Positions 1-34,976 of a stretch of 64,000 bases of DNA are shown here, one piece after another. Under the pieces are notes generated by a model. That model was not told the DNA's origin. It worked only from the letters and a program-made list of their open reading frames with translations, and did not search any database. The stretch is taken from contig CAYQCK010000003.1 in assembly GCA_964415965.1 (NCBI GenBank), positions 67,426 to 131,425 of the forward strand, read 5' to 3'. A program made the position numbers and the translations under genes. Position 1 is the stretch's first letter. Every line of letters begins with the position of its first letter. This stretch comes from an uncultured Gammaproteobacteria bacterium (GTDB lineage: Bacteria > Patescibacteriota > Patescibacteriia > 2-12-FULL-60-25).

Positions 1-89
1 TCAGGACTGAAGCGCCGATTTGGGCCGCGAGCTTGCGGGCCGCGATGCTTTTTCCGATGCGGGGAGCGCCCCCGATGAGATAAATCATA
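1..89 (-). CDS. Partial CDS (N-terminus only, runs off the window edge): P-loop NTPase/kinase-like protein
   Basis: Minus-strand ATG at ~89 translates to MIYLIGGAPRIGKSIAARKLAAQIGASVL..., with a Walker-A-like GxxxxGKS. The ORF continues past position 1. Confidence 0.4.
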
Positions 90-152
90 TGTTTCAAGAT
101 AACCGATAATCCGAGTTTATTCCATGGACCGGTCTCTCGCGGCCTAAGCGCG

Positions 153-1757
153 TCACCAGTATCCGGCTTCGGAATACATGGCCAGACTCTCGTAATCGGC
201 CGTGCCGGCGTCGTCGGTCCAAGGCTTCCCGGCTTCGGGCGTAGGCAGCGCCACGGCCGCCGCAACGCCGGATTTCTCCCGGATTTCCCGAGCCAAGTCA
301 GCGGCCTTGGGACCAGCGCCTTGCCCGGCGAAAATCAGGACGTTCGCGACCTTGTCCGGGGAAGGGCCGTTGCCCATGCTGACGATAGCCAGCCAGTCGA
401 AGCCGGTGCGGAAAGTCCCGACCAGCCGCGCCTGGAAATTTTTTCCGTCTTCGCCGCTCGGCAGCGGAGGCATGATCATGTTGGCCACCAATACGCCGCC
501 CGGCTTGAGCGCCCGGCGGTAGTCCGCCACGGCTTCCCGCGTCAGCAGCTGCCAGGGCACGCAATGGTCTCCGCCGAACGCGTCGGCCGCGATGATGCCG
601 TAGCGGCGATCCAAACGGCGCACCGCCGGACGCGCATCATCGACGATGACCTTGACCCTTTCGGGATAGGCCGTGCCGTACGCCTCTTGCGCCGCCCGGT
701 AGACCGCGGGATCGATTTCGATGGCGTCGACGGTGGCCTGCGGATGGCGCGCCGCGAACTCGTCCGCCATCTGCATCCCGCCCGCCCCGACGAGCAGCAG
801 GCTGTCCGGCTCCGCCACCAACCCGTCGGCCGCCCTCATCCCGGCGACGTAATCGAACAACGAAACATGCGGGGAGTCTGGCCGGGCCGCGGAATGGTAA
901 CCGGAATTGATTTTCAGGAACCTGGCCGGGCCGCCTTTGAAGGTCGCGTCCTGGATGGATACATGGCCGTAGGCCGAGGGGATTTCCCGACCGCCGACCG
1001 GGCTGTCCGCGGCCGGGACCAGTCCCGGCGCCAAGACCATGCCCATGGCCGCCAAGGCGGCGTACGGCTTGCGCACCCGGTTCCTGGCCGAAAAACCCAG
1101 ACCGCACAGGACGAGCAGCGAACCGATGGCGAAGACGAGATGCGTGACCGGCAAAAGCGGCAGCAGGACATAGCCCGTGACATAGGTGCCGCACAGACTG
1201 CCGATGGTCCCGACGGCCGACAGGAAACCGGCGATGCGGCCGCTCTGCTCGAGCTTGTCCACGGTGAGGCGCAGGACCGCCGGGGCGACCGCGCCCAATA
1301 GGAACGAAGGCGGCGCGAACAGCAGGAGCGAGGCCAAAGGCACGACGGTTTGGAGCGGCCAATCGGCGACTTTGCCCAAAAACGGACGGCTGGCCAAGGC
1401 CAAGCCGATGGACCAAACGCCGGCGAGCAGCAGGAACGACGCCACGGTCGAAAGCCGCGGCCGCTTGTCGGCCGCGATGCCGCCGAGCCAGGCGCCGAGC
1501 GCCAAAGCCACGAGGATTACGCCGATGATGTTGGTCCAGACCAGGATGGACGTCCCGAAATACGGCGCCATAAGCCGCGCCTCGAGCAGTTCGAGGCTCA
1601 TGACTGCGAATCCGCTCACGAAAGCGGCAGCGACGGCCGGCCAATGTCCCGTGAGGACGGCGGCTTTGGGCGTGGACGCGACCGGCTCGCTACAAAGCAC
1701 CCCGCCCTCACGGGCTGGGTGCTGCTGTTGGATGTTTATTTGTCCGGTCTGACCCAT
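153..1757 (-). CDS. Membrane-anchored spermidine synthase-like (polyamine aminopropyltransferase family) fusion protein
   Basis: 534-aa ORF. The N-terminal half is polytopic hydrophobic. The C-terminal half has an aminopropyltransferase-like LLLVGAGGM ... VIVDDA pattern. It overlaps the gyrA stop by 1 nt (operon). Confidence 0.5.
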   Translation of the reverse strand: MGQTGQINIQQQHPAREGGVLCSEPVASTPKAAVLTGHWPAVAAAFVSGFAVMSLELLEARLMAPYFGTSILVWTNIIGVILVALALGAWLGGIAADKRPRLSTVASFLLLAGVWSIGLALASRPFLGKVADWPLQTVVPLASLLLFAPPSFLLGAVAPAVLRLTVDKLEQSGRIAGFLSAVGTIGSLCGTYVTGYVLLPLLPVTHLVFAIGSLLVLCGLGFSARNRVRKPYAALAAMGMVLAPGLVPAADSPVGGREIPSAYGHVSIQDATFKGGPARFLKINSGYHSAARPDSPHVSLFDYVAGMRAADGLVAEPDSLLLVGAGGMQMADEFAARHPQATVDAIEIDPAVYRAAQEAYGTAYPERVKVIVDDARPAVRRLDRRYGIIAADAFGGDHCVPWQLLTREAVADYRRALKPGGVLVANMIMPPLPSGEDGKNFQARLVGTFRTGFDWLAIVSMGNGPSPDKVANVLIFAGQGAGPKAADLAREIREKSGVAAAVALPTPEAGKPWTDDAGTADYESLAMYSEAGYW

Positions 1758-1758
1758 G

Positions 1759-4257
1759 TCATTCGTCCTTAGCGTCCCCGCCGACGAGCGCCACGCTCGA
1801 AAGCATGTCGCCCTCTTCCTTGAACCGCATCACCCTTACTCCCTGGGTGTCACGGCCGAGCGACGGCACGCTCTTGAACGGCAGGCGGATGACCACGCCC
1901 TTCTTGCTCATGCACAGGAGGTCGCGTTCTTCGTCCTTCGATGTGACATATGCCGCCACCACCCCGCCGGTCTTGGGCGTGACCTTCATCGTCCGGATGC
2001 CCGAGCCGCCGCGCTTCTGGACCTTGTATTCGGTCAGGTTGGTGCGCTTGCCCAAACCGTTTTCGGCGATGGTGAATAGCTCGAGATGGCCTTTCTTGAC
2101 GAGCGACGGCAGGACGATATCCATCCCGACGACGCTGTCGCCCTTTTTCTTGAGATTGATGCCGCGCACGCCGGCCGCGTTGCGCCCCATGGCGCGGACG
2201 TCCGACTCCTTGAACCGGATGGATTGTCCCTGGCTCGTCACCAGCATGATGTCGTCGGATCCGGAGGAGGGCTTGACCCACTTGAGGTCGTCGCCTTCGT
2301 GGAGGTTGATGGCGATAAGCCCGGAACGCCTGACGTTCTCGAACTCCGCGAGCTCGGTCTTCTTAATCGTACCCTGGGTCGTGACCATCACCAGGTTCTT
2401 GGCGCCGTCCATGTCGCCCATGGGCAGGACCGTCGCCACCTTCTCGCCCGGCGCGAGCTGGAGGAAATTGACGATGGCTTGGCCCTTGGCCGTGCGGCTC
2501 CCCTGCGGGACGTCGTACGCCTTCATCCGGAAGACGCGGCCGCGCGTCGTGAAGAACATGATGTCGGCGTGGGTGTTGGTCGAGAAGACGTGTTCGACCT
2601 GGTCCTCTTCCTTGGTCGTCAGCCCGGCCACGCCTTTGCCGCCGCGTCCCTGGGTGCGGAACATGTCCGGCGGCACGCGCTTGACGTAGCCGTCGGCCGT
2701 CAGCATGACGAGCGTCGGCTCGTCCGGGATCAGGTCTTCGGTCGAGAACTCCCCGACCGGCGACTTGATGACCTGGGTGCGGCGTTCGTCGCCGAACTTC
2801 TCGGCCATCTCCTGGACTTCCTTCTTGATGATGGCCAGCATCTTCTTGGCCGATTTCAGGATCGATTCCAGCTCCTCGATCAGGTCCATCTTCTCCTTGT
2901 ATTCCTGCTCGACCTTGAGGCGCTCAAGGTTGGCCAGCTGCTGCAGCCGCATCTCGAGGATGGCCCCGGCCTGGATCTCGGACAGCTTGAACTTCTTGAC
3001 CAGGTTGATCTTGGCCTCGTCCTTATCCTTGGATTTCTTGATGGTCGCGATGACCTCATCGATCTTGAGGATGGCGATGCGCAGGCCTTCGAGGATATGC
3101 GCCCGTTCCTTGGCCCGCGCCAGCTCGTATTCGGTGCGGCGGCGGACGACGTTCTGGCGGTGTTTGACGTACTCCTCGAGGATGTTCTTGAGCGTCAGGA
3201 CGCGCGGCTGGATGCCGTCGACCAGCGCCAGCATGTTCACGTGGAACGTCTCCTGGAGCTGGGACATCTTGAAGAGCTGGTTCAGCACTTTGCGCGGATA
3301 GGCGTCCTTCTTGAGGTCAATGACGATGCGCAGGCCATCCTTGTTGGATTCGTCGCGCAGGTCGCGGATGCCCTCGATCCGCTTGTCCGTGACCAGCTCG
3401 GCGATGTGCTCGATGAGCGTCGCCTTGTTGACCTGGTACGGGATCTCGTTCACCACGATCTTGAACTGGCCGGCCTTGTCCTCGACGATCTCGGCCTTGG
3501 CCCGCATCACGATACCGCCCTTGCCCGTGGCGTACGCCTGCTTTATCTCATTGATGTCGTAGACGATGCCGCCGGTCGGGAAATCCGGTCCTTTGACGAA
3601 CTGCATCAGCCCTTCGACCGTGATGTCCGGGTCATCCATCAAAGCGCAAGCCGCGTCGCAGACCTCCTTCAGGTTGTGCGGCGGGATATTCGTGGCCATG
3701 CCGACGGCGATGCCGAGCGTTCCGTTCAGGAGCAGATTGGGCAGCTTGGCCGGCAGGACCGACGGCTCCTTGACCGAGCCGTCGAAATTGGGCCGGAAGT
3801 CGACCGTGTCCTTGTCGATATCGAGCAGCAGCTCGTCGGCCAGCGTCTCGAGCTTGGATTCGGTATAGCGGTAAGCGGCCGGACGGTCGCCGTCGATGGA
3901 ACCGAAGTTGCCTTGGCCGCGGACCAGCGGATAGCGCAGCGAAAAATCCTGCGCCATGCGGGCCAACGAATCGTAGACGGCCGAGTCGCCGTGCGGATGG
4001 TACTTGCCGAGCACGTCGCCGACGACCGTGGCGCATTTCTTGAATTTGGCGGTCGAACGCAGGCCGGTCTGCCACATCGAATACATGATGCGGCGGTGCA
4101 CCGGTTTCATGCCGTCGCGGACGTCCGGCAAGGCGCGGTCCACGATGACGCTCATGGCGTAATCGAGGAACGAGGTGCGCATCTCCTGCACGATGTCGTG
4201 CTGTTCGATGTTGCCGATGTATTGGAGCGGCTGTTGGTTCTGTTGTTTGTCGGCCAT
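1759..4257 (-). CDS. gyrA: DNA gyrase subunit A
   Basis: 832 aa. Canonical GyrA N-terminus ([24 protein letters not shown]..., catalytic Tyr region RYTE) and C-terminal beta-pinwheel repeats. Confidence 0.97.
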
Positions 4258-4263
4258 AGCTTC

Positions 4264-4854
4264 TTAGGGTTTGCTGGTTTCGGTTGGTTTTTCCGTCTGG
4301 ACCGCCGGCGTGCCGGTCACGACCGTCTCCGGGTTGAACAGGTCGCGCGTCCCGCTCGCCGCTTCGTCGGTCCCGGACAAGACGCGCTCCATGGTCCGTC
4401 GGGCATCGGCCTGGGCGGCCGCCTGCTCCTTGATGAGCTGCATCTGCCGGCTCGCCCCGTCAGCCGCGTTCCTGATGAGCTCGTTGCCCGTGGCTCCCTG
4501 CATCGAATCGCCGACCTCCGACGCCGTCTGGCTGGCTTCGGCCAAGGCCGGCTTGAGCCCCGCATCGAACCCTTTATTGATTTCTGGTTTGACCGCCCAC
4601 CACCAGCCGACGGCCACGATCACGGCGCAGACGGCGACGCCGAGCCACATGCTCGTGACCTGCACCGGATCCGTCGGGCGGCGTGCGGCGGCGTGGGCCA
4701 AGATGATCTGCCGCTTCTCTTCCCGGCTCAACAGCGTGCCGGACGCGTAGCTTTCCGGTTCGGGCGCGGCGATGGGCTGGATGTCGCTTGCCGGCGTCTT
4801 GGCCCTTCGGGGCGCGGCGCGGCGCGGCGCGGCGGTGGCTTTTTTTATGGGCAT
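4264..4854 (-). CDS. Hypothetical single-pass membrane protein
   Basis: 196 aa with a basic N-terminus and one TM helix (WLGVAVCAVIVAVGWWWAV). Tightly packed between the MBL gene and gyrA. Confidence 0.5.
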   Translation of the reverse strand: MPIKKATAAPRRAAPRRAKTPASDIQPIAAPEPESYASGTLLSREEKRQIILAHAAARRPTDPVQVTSMWLGVAVCAVIVAVGWWWAVKPEINKGFDAGLKPALAEASQTASEVGDSMQGATGNELIRNAADGASRQMQLIKEQAAAQADARRTMERVLSGTDEAASGTRDLFNPETVVTGTPAVQTEKPTETSKP

Positions 4855-7348: not shown

Positions 7349-8074
7349 TCACGCCAAATTGGAATATACGTGCGCCACGTCATCCAGCGCCTCCAGCTCC
7401 TCGATGAGCTCCGCGACCTGGGTCCCTTTCTCCTCGTCCGTCTCGACCAGGCTAGACGGGATCCACTCGAACTCGGCGCTTTCGACGTTCAGGCCCAACT
7501 TCGACGCCGCGTCCGCGACCTTGGCCAAATCCGTCGTCACGCAGGTCACCTCGGCCGTCTCATCCAAGTCCGCGATATCCTCGGCGCCCGCGTCGATCAG
7601 CGACAGCTCGACCTCTTCGCGCCGGTCCGCCGGTAGCCCTCCCGGGATACGCACCACGCCCTTCTTCTGGAAGAGATAGGTCACCGAACCTTGGTTGGCC
7701 AGGGACGCACCGTAATCGGACAAGGTGTGTTTGACGTCGTTCGCCGAACGGTTGGTGTTGTCGGTCAGGCACTCGATGATGAGCGCCGTGCCGCCCGGGG
7801 CGTACGCCTCGTACACCGGAGATTCGATGGTCGCGGCATCGGCGCCCGTACCGGCGCCGCGCGCCACCGCCCGCTCGATGGCGTCCTTGGGCATGGAAGC
7901 TTTCCGCGCCCGGTCGATGGCCACCCGGAGCCTGACGTTCATCGCCGGATCGCCGCCTTTTTCGCGGGCCGCGACCGAAATCTCGCGCGCCAGCTTGGTG
8001 AACGACGCCGAACGCTTGGCGTCGACGGCGCCCTTGAACTGTTTCACTTTGGACCACTTGGAATGACGGGACAT
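7349..8074 (-). CDS. YebC/PmpR family DNA-binding transcriptional regulator
   Basis: Start at MSRHSKWSKVKQFKG (the track ORF 7349..8425 carries a spurious 117-aa N-extension). Full-length YebC family match. Confidence 0.9.
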   Translation of the reverse strand: MSRHSKWSKVKQFKGAVDAKRSASFTKLAREISVAAREKGGDPAMNVRLRVAIDRARKASMPKDAIERAVARGAGTGADAATIESPVYEAYAPGGTALIIECLTDNTNRSANDVKHTLSDYGASLANQGSVTYLFQKKGVVRIPGGLPADRREEVELSLIDAGAEDIADLDETAEVTCVTTDLAKVADAASKLGLNVESAEFEWIPSSLVETDEEKGTQVAELIEELEALDDVAHVYSNLA

Positions 8075-8109
8075 AAAGATAGCTCCCAGCTTAGCCGACC
8101 CGGCCCAGC

Positions 8110-8137
8110 TTGACAAAGTCCGCCAGGTTGCTAGAAT
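8110..8137 (+). promoter_or_regulatory. Consensus-like sigma70 promoter (TTGACA-N16-TAGAAT)
   Basis: Read directly from the sequence, ~45 nt upstream of the Cys-rich ORF start. Confidence 0.5.
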
Positions 8138-8181
8138 CGCCAGGCTCTTTTGGCCCAACCCCAACCCGGAGACTCCGTTCA

Positions 8182-8502
8182 ATGCCCTGTGTTTTCTGCG
8201 GCCGCAGCTACCATACCTCGCCCTCCAAGGCTTTTTGCCTGGGCTGCCTGCAGCTCCTCGTGAATGTCCGCGTCGCCGAACGGTCAGACCCTGAAGATAC
8301 GGTCCGCCATCTGCGGCCGCTCGTGGTCCGCGGTTCCTGCGGCTTCTGCCGCCAGGAAAACTGCGGTTGCCTTTGCAACCTATGCGGCCTCGAGCACGCC
8401 GATTGCGCCTGTACCGCGACCGCAATCCTGGCGCACTACGGCATCGGCAGCGGGGATTCTTGCCGCCCGCCGCCGCTCAAACAGGCCGAAAACTTCACCT
8501 GA
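8182..8502 (+). CDS. Cysteine-rich small protein (multiple CxxC; zinc-ribbon-like)
   Basis: MPCVFCGRSYH...CLGC...CGFC...CGCLCNLC...CAC. GGAG lies 9 nt upstream. The track ORF 8110..8502 starts at the TTG inside the promoter -35 element. Confidence 0.5.
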   Translation: MPCVFCGRSYHTSPSKAFCLGCLQLLVNVRVAERSDPEDTVRHLRPLVVRGSCGFCRQENCGCLCNLCGLEHADCACTATAILAHYGIGSGDSCRPPPLKQAENFT

Positions 8503-8527
8503 CCGCCACGGCCAGGCCCTTCCCCAA

Positions 8528-8560
8528 CCGCCCCGACGCTCCCGCGCCGGGCGTTTTTTA
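8528..8560 (+). terminator. Intrinsic terminator (GC hairpin CGCCCCG...CGGGCG + T6)
   Basis: ccgccccgacgctcccgcgccgggcgtttttta. It is near-identical to the element at ~9008. Confidence 0.6.
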
Positions 8561-8654
8561 AACGGAAATTGACGCCTCAATCGGGCTTTGTTACGTTGAA
8601 CCGACGGACATTCGGACAATCTCACCTCTGACTGCACATCGAGGAGAACCCGCC

Positions 8655-8978
8655 ATCGACCAAGGACATTCCGCTGGGCCAGCCGCCGCACCGCCCCTGA
8701 CCAAAATCACTTGCCCGAACTGCAAAGGCCAAGGCAAAATCCATCGGTTCGAAACCTGCTCGAGATGCCACGGCGAAGGTGAAGTCGGACCTTGGGAGCG
8801 CGTAGGAGGCCCGGGCGATGATCATTTCTACGGCAATCCCTGCCCTGAATGCAGCGACCCCAACCCCGACGGCGTTCGCTGCAGCCGAGGTCAAGTCTAC
8901 CTCGGCCAAATGACTTGCGGCACGTGCAACGGCCAAGGCCACTATTGGCTCGACGCCGAAAAGCCGCCCGCCGCCTGA
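8655..8978 (+). CDS. DnaJ-type zinc-finger (4x CxxCxGxG) small protein ORF with no canonical start codon
   Basis: Stop-free frame 8562..8978 encodes CPNCKGQGK...CSRCHGEGE...CPECSD...CGTCNGQGH. There is no ATG/GTG/TTG before the motifs. GAGGAG sits 8 nt before an in-frame ATC at ~8655. Confidence 0.35.
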   Translation: MDQGHSAGPAAAPPLTKITCPNCKGQGKIHRFETCSRCHGEGEVGPWERVGGPGDDHFYGNPCPECSDPNPDGVRCSRGQVYLGQMTCGTCNGQGHYWLDAEKPPAA

Positions 8979-9007
8979 ATCACACATGTCCAACAGGCTT
9001 CTCACCA

Positions 9008-9040
9008 CCGCCCGACGTTCCCGCGCCGGGCGTTTTTTAT
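9008..9040 (+). terminator. Intrinsic terminator, a near-copy of the 8528 element
   Basis: ccgcccgacgttcccgcgccgggcgttttttat. Confidence 0.6.
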
Positions 9041-9157
9041 GTTGATACCGGATTTACTTGCTATGCCTTGACCTTATCCCGATAATCCGATATGCAATTA
9101 GCGAGGGTAATTCGGCCCTCGCTGTACATTGACAACCCAATCTTTGGGAGACTTGTC

Positions 9158-32747: not shown

Positions 32748-34976
32748 TCACGGCACGGTCTCGATCCGGCCGTTGTAGTACGGCGGACCGTATTGGTTGG
32801 GCACCAGGACAAAAGCCAGGCCGCCTCCGGGCCCGGAAACCGTCAGGCTCCCGACCGTGGACCCGCATCCGCCGTTCCAGCACGACTGGTCGCCCCAGAA
32901 CTGCCCATTTGGCAAATCTATCTGGAACTCGAGCGGCGAACTTCCGGATTCGACGGTGAATTGACACTCGAGCTTGCCGTCGCCGGGAACCGCATCGGCG
33001 CAATCCGTGACCTGGCCCCAGGCCCGGACCGACTTGTCGGGCCGCTGCCACCAAGCGTTGAGCTTAATGGCACCGGGTGTGGCCGGACCGGTGTAGGCGA
33101 AACGGAGCATGGTCATCCCGTCCGGCGCCGGCTGGTCGGCGTCCGTCGTCCCGGCATCTGGCTTGGCCTGGCAAGCCGCGTCGTCCGCGCAAGCCGGATC
33201 GGCGCAATCGATGAATCCGTTGCAGTCGTCGTCGATGGTGTTGGCGCAACCCTCGGCGAACGGCCGGCAAGCTCCCCATGAACAGTCCGGCGCGTCACAG
33301 CGCTGTTGGCCGACCGTACCGCATTCCGAGACGCAGACCGGTCCGTCGAGCGCGCCCAGCCGGCAGAGGAAAATCTCGTCGACGGCTCCGTTGCCGTCAT
33401 CGTCAAGGCCGTTACAGGCCTCGGCCGGCTGATTGCCCGAACCCGCTTGGCCCTGTCCGGCATCGGCGTCCGCGGCCGGTTCACCATCGTCGTCCTCGCC
33501 CGGATAATCCTCCGGGTCGGCGCCGCCGCCGCAATCCCCGTCCGAAGGGCAGGGCGCAGGCAGAGCGCAGTCGAAGATGGAATCCCAATCCACGACTCCG
33601 GATTCGCGCGGCCCAGCCACGGCGTCGAGCACGTCGGCCGGGATGGCGACAACGCGTTCCCAGGCGTAACCGAGCTTCTCGAACACCTCGCCGCTCGCGA
33701 TGGGCCGCCGCGTCTGCCACGGCGTGACGATGCAGACTTCGCTCGCCTCGACCGCCTTGACCAGGCTCCCCGGCCGCAACCGGCGGAAGCCCTGTGCCGC
33801 ATACTTCGTCTCGGCCTGCTGGATCTTGGCCGCGTCCTTGGTCAGCTCGCTGAAATTGTAGCCCCAGGAGAACAAGGCCTCCTGGCGGATGGCGTCGAAC
33901 CGCTGGAGCTTGGCGTCGTAGGCCATGACCACGGTCGACGAACCCGGGCGTTGGTAGAGCGTCACCGGGCCCGCCGAGGCGACATCGCCGCTGCGGGCAT
34001 AGCATGCCAGCTCATCATCCGAGGCGCGGACCGCGCGCGATACGTCATATCGGTCTGACTGCATCACGGCCTCCGGGAGGCTGGCGAGTTCGGCTTCGCC
34101 GGAAACCAGCCAGTGGCCGCCCTGGGAATCCTCGAGGAGCGAACCCGGCGGATGGTGGCGCACGCCCACGTCCGGCGTGAGCGCCGGATCGCCGAGCGCC
34201 TTCAGCGTCAGCACCGGATCGCTCCATTCCGGATGGACGAGCTTGCCGGTCTGCGCATCCTTGGTGAACTCGCTCCGCGCCGCGTAGCCGCGCACCCATT
34301 TGTAGACGCCGCTGCGCGTGTAGCTCGCGGCCTGGTAGCGGCCCTGCCGGATGCCCCAGTGCAGATGATGCCAGTCCACGCTCTTGTCCGCGCCGTACCA
34401 GTAGTGACCGACGCGCCCGAGGTATTGGCCGCGGCGGACCAACGTCCCCCGCTTGGGGTTGCCGATCCGGGCGCTCGGGTCGTACGCTTGGCCGCTTTCG
34501 CATCTCACGTGGCCGAGGAGCGTCGTGAAGGCCTGGCCGTTCTGCAGCTCGTGTTCCAGCACGATGACGCAGCCGTAATAGTCCGGGTTGTAACGGCTCG
34601 TGGAGCCGTAACCCTTCAGCGTGATGTCGGTCGTGACGCGCACGATGCCGTCGGCCGGCGCCAGGACCAAAGTGCCGAAGGGCGTCTTGCCGACCTGCGT
34701 GTCGCGGGCCAGGTGGTAGCCGTAGGCCAGGCAGTTGCCATCGGCGTCTCGGGCCATGCAGATGAGCGTGTTCATGCTCCCGAAACCGAACCCGAGATCC
34801 GAGGCGTTCAGGCCTTGGAGCGGGAACTGGTAAGTGAAGGCATACGGGATGCCGGTCGCCGGGTCGGTCTGGATGCCCTGCTGGGCATTCTCCGATATTT
34901 CGCCCCTGTCCCCCGCCTGACCGCAGGCCGCCAAGCACACCGAACCAACCGCCAGAAAGAATCGCGTCAGTCTCAT
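32748..34976 (-). CDS. Lipoprotein with an M23-peptidase-like region and C-terminal Cys-rich MopE-like putative metal-binding repeats
   Basis: Lipobox LAACGQ. HHLHWG resembles the M23 HxH motif. Repeated C..DDDxNGxxDE / DDDCNGFIDCADPAC motifs. Confidence 0.55.
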   Translation of the reverse strand: MRLTRFFLAVGSVCLAACGQAGDRGEISENAQQGIQTDPATGIPYAFTYQFPLQGLNASDLGFGFGSMNTLICMARDADGNCLAYGYHLARDTQVGKTPFGTLVLAPADGIVRVTTDITLKGYGSTSRYNPDYYGCVIVLEHELQNGQAFTTLLGHVRCESGQAYDPSARIGNPKRGTLVRRGQYLGRVGHYWYGADKSVDWHHLHWGIRQGRYQAASYTRSGVYKWVRGYAARSEFTKDAQTGKLVHPEWSDPVLTLKALGDPALTPDVGVRHHPPGSLLEDSQGGHWLVSGEAELASLPEAVMQSDRYDVSRAVRASDDELACYARSGDVASAGPVTLYQRPGSSTVVMAYDAKLQRFDAIRQEALFSWGYNFSELTKDAAKIQQAETKYAAQGFRRLRPGSLVKAVEASEVCIVTPWQTRRPIASGEVFEKLGYAWERVVAIPADVLDAVAGPRESGVVDWDSIFDCALPAPCPSDGDCGGGADPEDYPGEDDDGEPAADADAGQGQAGSGNQPAEACNGLDDDGNGAVDEIFLCRLGALDGPVCVSECGTVGQQRCDAPDCSWGACRPFAEGCANTIDDDCNGFIDCADPACADDAACQAKPDAGTTDADQPAPDGMTMLRFAYTGPATPGAIKLNAWWQRPDKSVRAWGQVTDCADAVPGDGKLECQFTVESGSSPLEFQIDLPNGQFWGDQSCWNGGCGSTVGSLTVSGPGGGLAFVLVPNQYGPPYYNGRIETVP

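Follow-up and report, generated by a model that had tools for sequence, protein, structure and literature searches.

An ATG/ATC start codon polymorphism in a gene for a stand-alone DnaJ-type zinc-finger protein of Patescibacteria

Two small cysteine-rich open reading frames (ORFs), here termed ORF A and ORF B, are situated on the plus strand between yebC (minus strand, 7352-8074) and rpoC in a genome of the Patescibacteria (candidate phyla radiation, CPR). We analyzed them within a 64-kb stretch of one contig, referred to as the window, and all positions are numbered within it unless another contig is named. The open frame of ORF B extends from 8562 to 8978 and encodes four cysteine pairs of the DnaJ type. 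An earlier reading made from the letters without database searches (the sequence-only reading) had found the frame to be free of ATG, GTG and TTG codons upstream of these motifs. This is correct, and the first such in-frame codon is a Met codon located 21 codons from the end. The locus raises the question of whether ORF B is a gene at all and, if so, where and how well its translation is initiated. The sequence-only reading had offered a non-canonical initiation codon, a recent loss of the start codon, or a sequencing or assembly indel. Taking all observations together, we consider it quite likely that ORF B is a real gene, that its ATG start codon was changed to ATC at 8657, that the product of this change is a weak or near-null natural allele, and that the terminator of the gene was copied from ORF A.

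The start codon of ORF B

The sequence-only reading had noted a GAGGAG element 8 nt before an in-frame ATC as well as a CTG further downstream, and had picked the ATC as the position of the start. Both codons were found as described. The GAGGAG, which resembles a Shine-Dalgarno (SD) sequence, is located at 8641-8646 on the plus strand, the ATC at 8655-8657, and the CTG at 8697-8699, 6 codons ahead of the first Cys. A word-indexed search of 5.8 billion proteins returned a single relative of the ORF B product (P0001), a protein of 107 aa with 98% identity that starts with MDQGHS. The contig that encodes it is 99.4% identical to the window, aligns without gaps, and has an ATG exactly where the window has the ATC. 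Exact-protein look-ups with ORF A and YebC led to contigs of the same species that stem from 15 independent runs or assemblies. Codon 8655-8657 was ATC in the window and in the assemblies from SRR21076690, SRR21798932, SRR25213505, and ERR14947318 (5 of 16 sequences), and ATG in the other 11 of the 15 assemblies. The GAGGAG element was identical in both groups. Seven more distant homologues of ORF B, described below, all had an ATG start at the equivalent place, 5-8 nt after a GGAGG-type element (GGGG in the homologue on contig L037).

In the gap-free alignment to the sister contigs, a G to C substitution at 8657 turns ATG into ATC. The indel suggested by the sequence-only reading is refuted by this single substitution, which recurs in four other assemblies together with six linked single nucleotide polymorphisms (SNPs). 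The alignment of orthologues that had been proposed as a check did reveal an ATG at the homologous position, but the window differs from it by a substitution and not by an indel. These alignments identify codon 8655-8657 as the true start of ORF B and indicate that the ATC allele segregates in nature. By parsimony ATG would be ancestral and ATC derived, because the sister haplotype and all seven outgroup lineages have ATG. Relative to this ancestor the canonical start was lost. Conservation of a near-cognate start among orthologues, as for infC, was not found; ATC was confined to one haplotype. Loss of the start codon and non-canonical initiation, listed as separate possibilities by the sequence-only reading, are two descriptions of the same allele, which sequence alone cannot separate.

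Other ways to start the frame were also considered. Initiation in a different frame, or coupled to ORF A, was rejected, as ORF A is read in another frame and a TAA is present at 8559-8561. Two TTG codons (8569 and 8596) are out of frame and were rejected because both run into stop codons, and none of the linked SNPs creates an in-frame ATG, GTG, or TTG that could compensate for the ATC. A scan of the whole window for other start-less coding frames was uninformative, since the shadow frames of real genes dominate in GC-rich DNA.

The ORF B protein was gene-called only in ATG assemblies. It is absent from the protein sets of NCBI and JGI for this organism, whose records contain ORF A and the neighboring genes without ORF B. 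A start codon polymorphism of one base can in this way mimic the presence or absence of a gene in pangenome and metagenome catalogues.

ORF B as a gene for a small zinc-finger protein

The ORF B product (8655-8978, plus strand) carries four Cys pairs. Three of the four repeats are canonical CxxCxGxG motifs (CPNCKGQG, CSRCHGEG, and CGTCNGQG), while the third, CPECSDPN, is a CxxC without GxG. The four canonical motifs named in the sequence-only reading thus hold as four pairs but are canonical in three cases only. When all six frames were scanned, the three CxxCxGxG motifs were found nowhere else in the window. Repeats 1 and 4 of the zinc finger (8704-8735 and 8908-8939) are 78% identical at the DNA level over 32 nt, a trace of intragenic duplication.

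An exhaustive HMMER search of 1.84 billion representative proteins gave five full-length homologues of 92-110 aa, with 38-51% identity over the matched stretches. Two more, both of 112 aa, were added by a profile search; one of these comes from the metagenome-assembled genome (MAG) of a "Patescibacteria group bacterium", where its annotation is hypothetical protein. In the family alignment the homologues were full-length at about 33-51% identity and had kept the motif Cys and Gly residues. Sixteen columns were invariant, including seven fully invariant Cys and the motif Gly, and the eighth Cys (C66) was register-shifted in two members. The N-terminus is variable, with the first 14-19 residues unconserved; the window and four homologues have 19 residues ahead of the first Cys, and P0016 has only 10. 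The homologues are about 100 aa long and the family is rare. A scan of JGI metagenomes returned two loci only, one on contig L023 and one in the known MAG. Viral contigs gave just partial motif matches (residues 16-57, about 30% identity). On this ground a phage-borne origin of ORF B was rejected. PHROG matches were weak, and PADLOC yielded none.

All 10 members of the ORF B family matched the DnaJ cysteine-rich (CR) domain model PF00684, with a best E-value of 1.5e-8. ORF B itself remained below the gathering cut-off of 32.7 bits, both as the open frame (29.1 bits) and as the 107-aa product (29.8 bits, E about 1e-6). The family profile matched the CR domain of Escherichia coli DnaJ (1exk) with an E-value of 4.7e-5. 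An AlphaFold2 (AF2) model of ORF B had a predicted local distance difference test score (pLDDT) of 80.2 and consisted of six beta-strands arranged in hairpins, and its top structural matches were BSD2 (6ekb, the best Foldseek match), DnaJA2, the zinc finger of DNAJA3, and anti-TRAP. The G+C content at third codon positions (GC3) was 0.66 inside ORF B (8655-8975) compared to 0.45 in the open frame upstream of 8655. The statement of the sequence-only reading that ORF B is clearly under coding constraint is borne out by the homologues, the SNP pattern presented below, and GC3. Taken at the level of sequence comparison, these observations identify ORF B as a real gene encoding a 107-aa stand-alone DnaJ-type zinc-finger protein.

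ORF B resembles the CR domain of DnaJ in its repeated CxxCxGxG motifs, its four Cys pairs, and its predicted beta-hairpin architecture. It differs by having no J domain, G/F region, or C-terminal substrate-binding domains, by a third repeat that is without GxG throughout the family whereas repeats 1, 2, and 4 carry it, and by its spacing, with 7 residues between repeats 1 and 2 and 20 or more between repeats 2 and 3 and between repeats 3 and 4. It is not a full-length DnaJ/Hsp40 protein, since a J-domain match was not found and the NCBIfam DnaJ models gave 9-17 bits against cut-offs of 338-619. The resemblance extends to BSD2 (6ekb), PSA2, ZnJ6, and anti-TRAP (RtpA, 3ld0/3lcz), which are likewise small, consist essentially of a CR-type zinc finger, and bind proteins. 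In stand-alone DnaJ-like zinc fingers, four CxxCxGxG motifs form two zinc fingers (PMC7865324), and proteins of this type have roles in assembly or chaperoning (PMC4806229). ORF B differs from them in being found in CPR bacteria, in the yebC-rpoC interval and paired with ORF A. Anti-TRAP, at 53 aa, has half the repeats, and ORF B scored 28.3 bits against 65 with NF058604 and 17.7 against 32 with PF15777. Although 6ekb was the best Foldseek match, ORF B gave 12.6 bits with BSD2_CRD (PF25436), where 27 are required. ORF B is therefore a stand-alone CR-type zinc finger in kind, yet scores below the curated thresholds of every named family.

By analogy with the DnaJ CR domain, the eight Cys in four pairs would form two Zn(Cys)4 centers on a beta-hairpin scaffold. 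The protein would then probably be a small protein-binding or holdase-type module, like BSD2, anti-TRAP, and the plant DnaJ-like zinc-finger proteins. The analysis defines two small uncharacterized cysteine-rich families, that of ORF B, which is of a known kind, and that of ORF A, which has 12 invariant Cys and no match among known families. Proteins of both families may serve as zinc-dependent regulators or mini-chaperones in these bacteria with their minimal genomes.

The two haplotypes and the expected effect of the ATC allele

The ATC codon was perfectly linked to six other SNPs, at 8617, 8681, 8682, 8753, 8780, and 8789, with no intermediates among the 16 sequences. The SNP at 8617 lies in the 5' untranslated region, within a hexamer that reads GATAAT in the ATG haplotype and GACAAT in the ATC haplotype. 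Those at 8681, 8753, 8780, and 8789 are synonymous, and that at 8682 is an Ala/Thr replacement. Comparison with the sister assemblies thus delimits a block of seven linked SNPs on the plus strand (8617-8789), in which the haplotypes are 4% diverged over 173 bp compared to about 0.3% in the flanks. Four more SNPs (8955, 8966, 8982, and 8989) form another group, which assorted independently of the start codon SNP. The flanking SNPs were common to both allele classes, and ATC was found on at least three flanking backgrounds. ATC is not an artefact, because it is perfectly linked to six SNPs and present on at least three flanking backgrounds. Across 6.3 kb, 11 of the 18-26 differences were located in the ORF B region (Poisson P = 7e-7 to 2e-8).

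Between the haplotypes, five synonymous and two non-synonymous changes were counted (pS = 0.069, pN = 0.008, pN/pS about 0.12, binomial P = 0.008). Every complete copy of ORF B was intact, with no stop codon or indel, the complete ATC copies being those of the window and three samples. The GATAAT at 8617 in the ATG haplotype is the same -10-like hexamer as that found before a 487-aa gene further downstream, and a good -35 was not found upstream of it.

An estimate of how much protein the ATC allele would yield can be drawn from E. coli. There, AUC initiates at 0.1-3% of the level of AUG and the product carries an N-terminal Met, and AUU, in infC and pcnB, is the sole non-canonical start that has been confirmed (bioRxiv 10.1101/063800). 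Translation from the ATC allele would take place only by near-cognate pairing of AUC with the initiator tRNA on the retained GAGGAG. The amount of protein would drop roughly 30- to 1000-fold, which would make the allele a strong hypomorph or near-null. The initiation region (8600-8700) was less structured than shuffled sequence in both haplotypes (z = +1.4 and +2.0). By analogy with E. coli, much-reduced translation initiated at AUC is the most likely consequence of the ATC allele. Such an allele may be tolerated because ORF B is dispensable or replaceable. That it is replaceable is suggested by two contigs of a related lineage, L017 and L018, because the neighboring zinc-finger gene is there only 36% identical and belongs to another subfamily, while ORF A is 74% identical.

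The ATC allele has counterparts among known systems. It is like infC and pcnB of E. coli (AUU start) in having a near-cognate AUH codon behind a normal SD sequence, read with low efficiency by the initiator tRNA. It differs from infC, where AUU is conserved and autoregulatory, in that the non-AUG codon of ORF B is confined to one haplotype of one species whose relatives have ATG. With segregating start-codon-loss alleles it shares the loss of ATG by a single base change, an intact ORF, polymorphism between near-identical strains, and annotation that drops the gene. It differs from them in that the complete ATC copies carry no second disabling mutation and in the diverged, mostly synonymous block. 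A start codon polymorphism is a known kind of event, and the present case is ordinary biology that is by now well explained and does not overturn current understanding. The ATG/ATC pair offers a natural test case for near-cognate initiation in a CPR lineage.

Several points weigh against a start codon lost from a real gene with a near-null allele as the result. The contigs are from metagenomes and may be strain-consensus chimeras, which weakens the claim of several flanking backgrounds. The synonymous excess covers the whole divergence of the haplotypes and not the time since ATC arose, and is therefore no proof that translation of the ATC allele continues. The direction from ATG to ATC rests on parsimony. 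Even the nearest outgroup has an identity of only about 43-51% (51% where HMMER matched, 43% when taken from the family alignment), and for this reason the remaining six SNPs of the block cannot be polarised. Zinc binding is an inference for ORF B, as is any partner protein. Finally, the range of 0.1-3% was obtained in E. coli, and CPR ribosomes or their initiation factor 3 (IF3) may behave differently.

In the alternative that survives best, the ATC allele is functional and is maintained as an expression variant, either because AUC is read efficiently or because low- and high-expression alleles are under balancing selection. This alternative has a small chance of being correct. Two deep haplotypes without intermediates, set in flanks of about 0.3% divergence, and a peak of diversity centered on expression signals are what it would lead one to expect. 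The same holds for the intact ORF with its retained SD sequence, for the linked SNP at 8617, which alters a -10-like hexamer (GACAAT against GATAAT), and for the frequency of ATC (5 of 16), with both alleles found among runs of neighboring accession (SRR21076675, SRR21076688, SRR21076689, and SRR21076690). Import by recombination of a short tract from a diverged lineage would, however, give the same pattern without selection. A non-ATG start was seen in no homologue of any lineage, constraint specific to ATC is not in evidence, and sixteen consensus sequences are not population data. In a more specific version, the start codon difference and the promoter-region SNP would be an old balanced polymorphism, in natural CPR populations, between high and very low expression of a small zinc-finger regulator or chaperone, perhaps helped by an unusual permissiveness of these reduced-genome bacteria for AUC initiation. 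We rate this version as a little less probable still.

It is improbable that translation in ATC strains begins at another near-cognate codon, such as the CTG at 8697-8699 or an upstream ATT or ATC, to give an altered N-terminus. The position of the CTG before the first Cys, the unconserved N-terminal residues, and the short N-terminus of P0016 would all allow this, and CUG and AUC are equally good near-cognate starts in E. coli (bioRxiv 10.1101/063800). Against it, the only SD sequence fits 8655, with no SD-like element before the CTG or before the upstream in-frame ATT, ATC, and CTG codons, and the low GC3 upstream of 8655 has a non-coding look.

Two further alternatives are hardly credible. 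A miscalled base or indel in a single record is a reasonable prior for a single MAG, but nothing was found in its favor, and it is contradicted by the gap-free alignment and by the same ATC in the assemblies of four other sequencing runs, always with the same six linked SNPs. That ORF B is no gene, its frame and motifs having arisen by chance in GC-rich DNA or the real gene being the overlapping antisense ORF at 8622-9008 (128 aa, GTG start), could draw on the fact that start-less open frames of at least 90 codons are common in this window; it is opposed by the full-length homologues with all motif Cys and Gly, by motifs unique within 64 kb, and by the five synonymous changes, which all fall at third positions of the plus-strand frame and at first positions of the antisense ORF. 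On this last ground the antisense ORF was rejected as a real gene.

The duplicated terminator, ORF A and the surrounding locus

Near-identical terminators after both ORFs had been pointed out in the sequence-only reading, and this was confirmed. A 29-nt repeat (8532-8560 and 9011-9039) is 97% identical between its two copies, which are 479 nt apart; none was expected from 100 shuffles, and the 64 kb hold these two copies only. Both copies fold into a GC hairpin of 8-9 pairs with internal mismatches, followed by U6 just after the stop codon, as in intrinsic terminators. They are located on the plus strand at 8530-8559 for ORF A and 9009-9038 for ORF B. A terminator scan flagged the second copy and missed the first, which has a one-base bulge.

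The duplication of the 3' module that had been proposed is supported, and a direction from ORF A to ORF B can be added. The window from 8109 to 8558, covering the promoter, ORF, and terminator of ORF A, corresponds to positions 446-898 of L018 with 80.6% identity and the same terminator at its end. The zinc-finger gene of L018 (36% identical to ORF B, subfamily P0021) is located upstream of ORF A and has an unrelated terminator. In two other lineages, represented by contigs L019 and L023, the ORF B homologues are followed by a different terminator that is conserved between the two. In these lineages, and after ORF A in a further one (L035), ORF A and ORF B have terminators of their own that are conserved between lineages and differ from each other. 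All strains of the window's species have two copies of the module, and L017/L018 have one, which is located after ORF A. The comparison therefore indicates that the ORF B terminator is a lineage-specific copy of the ORF A terminator. Gene conversion could account for the copying, as could a rearrangement in which ORF B was moved or replaced. That the module is a dispersed repeat or mobile element was rejected: the 64 kb hold just two copies, each strain has one behind either mini-gene, and the related species has only one in all. No similarity was detectable between ORF A and ORF B when they were compared. They are tandem genes and not tandem duplicates.

ORF A (8182-8502, plus strand) is divergent from yebC, which was identified by NF001030 with 280 bits. 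It has an ATG start and encodes 106 aa with 13 Cys. The promoter assigned to it in the sequence-only reading, TTGACA-N16-TAGAAT, was confirmed at 8110-8137 on the plus strand, where it matches 11 of 12 consensus positions and has a TGc extended -10. ORF A follows 45 nt downstream, preceded by a GGAG SD sequence (8168-8171, plus strand) 10 nt 5' of the ATG, which is conserved in L018, L019, and L035. L018 and L019 have the same promoter layout (TTGACA, a 16-nt spacer, TGc, a "gctctttt" leader, and GGAG) in front of their ORF A homologues. At least five CxxC pairs had been claimed for ORF A, which is an overstatement; four strict CxxC motifs (CVFC, CLGC, CGFC, and CNLC) and three CxC motifs (CGC, CLC, and CAC) were found. 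Judged on four full-length homologues and one partial one, C3, C6, C19, C22, C53, C56, C61, C63, C65, C68, C75, and C77 were invariant, together with H72. GC3 of ORF A was 0.77. The protein is presumably metal-binding. It had no match in Pfam, NCBIfam, PHROG, PADLOC, or PDB, the best result of a PDB profile search having an E-value of 0.5, and its AF2 model, with a pLDDT of 40, was unusable. The nucleotide sequence of ORF A was identical in every same-species assembly compared, whereas in the neighboring ORF B region SNPs are about 10-fold denser than in the flanks.

A candidate weak promoter for ORF B, TTGACG-N17-TACGTT with a TGt extended -10 in front, can be read at 8569-8597 on the plus strand. 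It was missed by the consensus scan, and its -10 matches just 3 of 6 positions. With this candidate included, the locus consists of two autonomous single-gene units, each with promoter, SD sequence, ORF, and intrinsic terminator. Rfam had no match in 8050-9200, and thus no known riboswitch or leader was found upstream of ORF B.

The pair of ORF A and ORF B was found in five Patescibacteria lineages, namely that of the window and those of L019, L023, L035, and L017/L018, with yebC and rpoC flanks seen in three of the five. L019 is a 1.36-Mb Patescibacteria contig with the order gyrA ... RuvC, YebC, A, B, Exo_endo_phos, rpoC. L023 and L035 also have the order A-B, and L017/L018 have a zinc-finger gene followed by ORF A. 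Other members of the ORF B family adjoin unrelated genes, e.g., those for L31, YbaB, and a Mur ligase.

For L035 the public call is an antisense shadow ORF (15-386, minus strand, 123 aa), and the real ORF A homologue (33-356, plus strand, 107 aa, 12 Cys kept) was uncalled. In the JGI contig L017 the ORF A orthologue has, at 3015-3040, a 24-nt insertion (cggagggataaacatggataatgg) with an in-frame TAA, which is not in L018 (565-580), the Logan assembly of that species. The insertion leads to only an 80-aa fragment being called, and could be a real disruption or an assembly artefact. In L019, no gene is called in some 380 nt (4040-4431) that separate the ORF A homologue from yebC and have a TTGACA promoter-like site of their own as well as a terminator with a strong hairpin and T7. 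This stretch may encode a small RNA; Rfam gave a sub-threshold match to anti-hemB only (25 bits against 49.5), and the window has no counterpart.

Downstream of ORF B, the window contains the 487-aa ORF (9158-10621, plus strand) with its own promoter-like site, TTGCTA-N17-GATAAT (9058-9086). It had no match in Pfam, NCBIfam, PHROGs, or PADLOC. The ORF is missing at the equivalent position in L018 and L019, which makes the yebC-rpoC interval a variable spot. Elsewhere in the window, a 742-aa ORF (32748-34976, minus strand), unrelated to ORF A and ORF B, has around 33335 a region with 10 Cys per 60 residues (CVSECGTVGQQRCDAPDCSWGACRPFAEGCANTIDDDCNGFIDCADPAC...).

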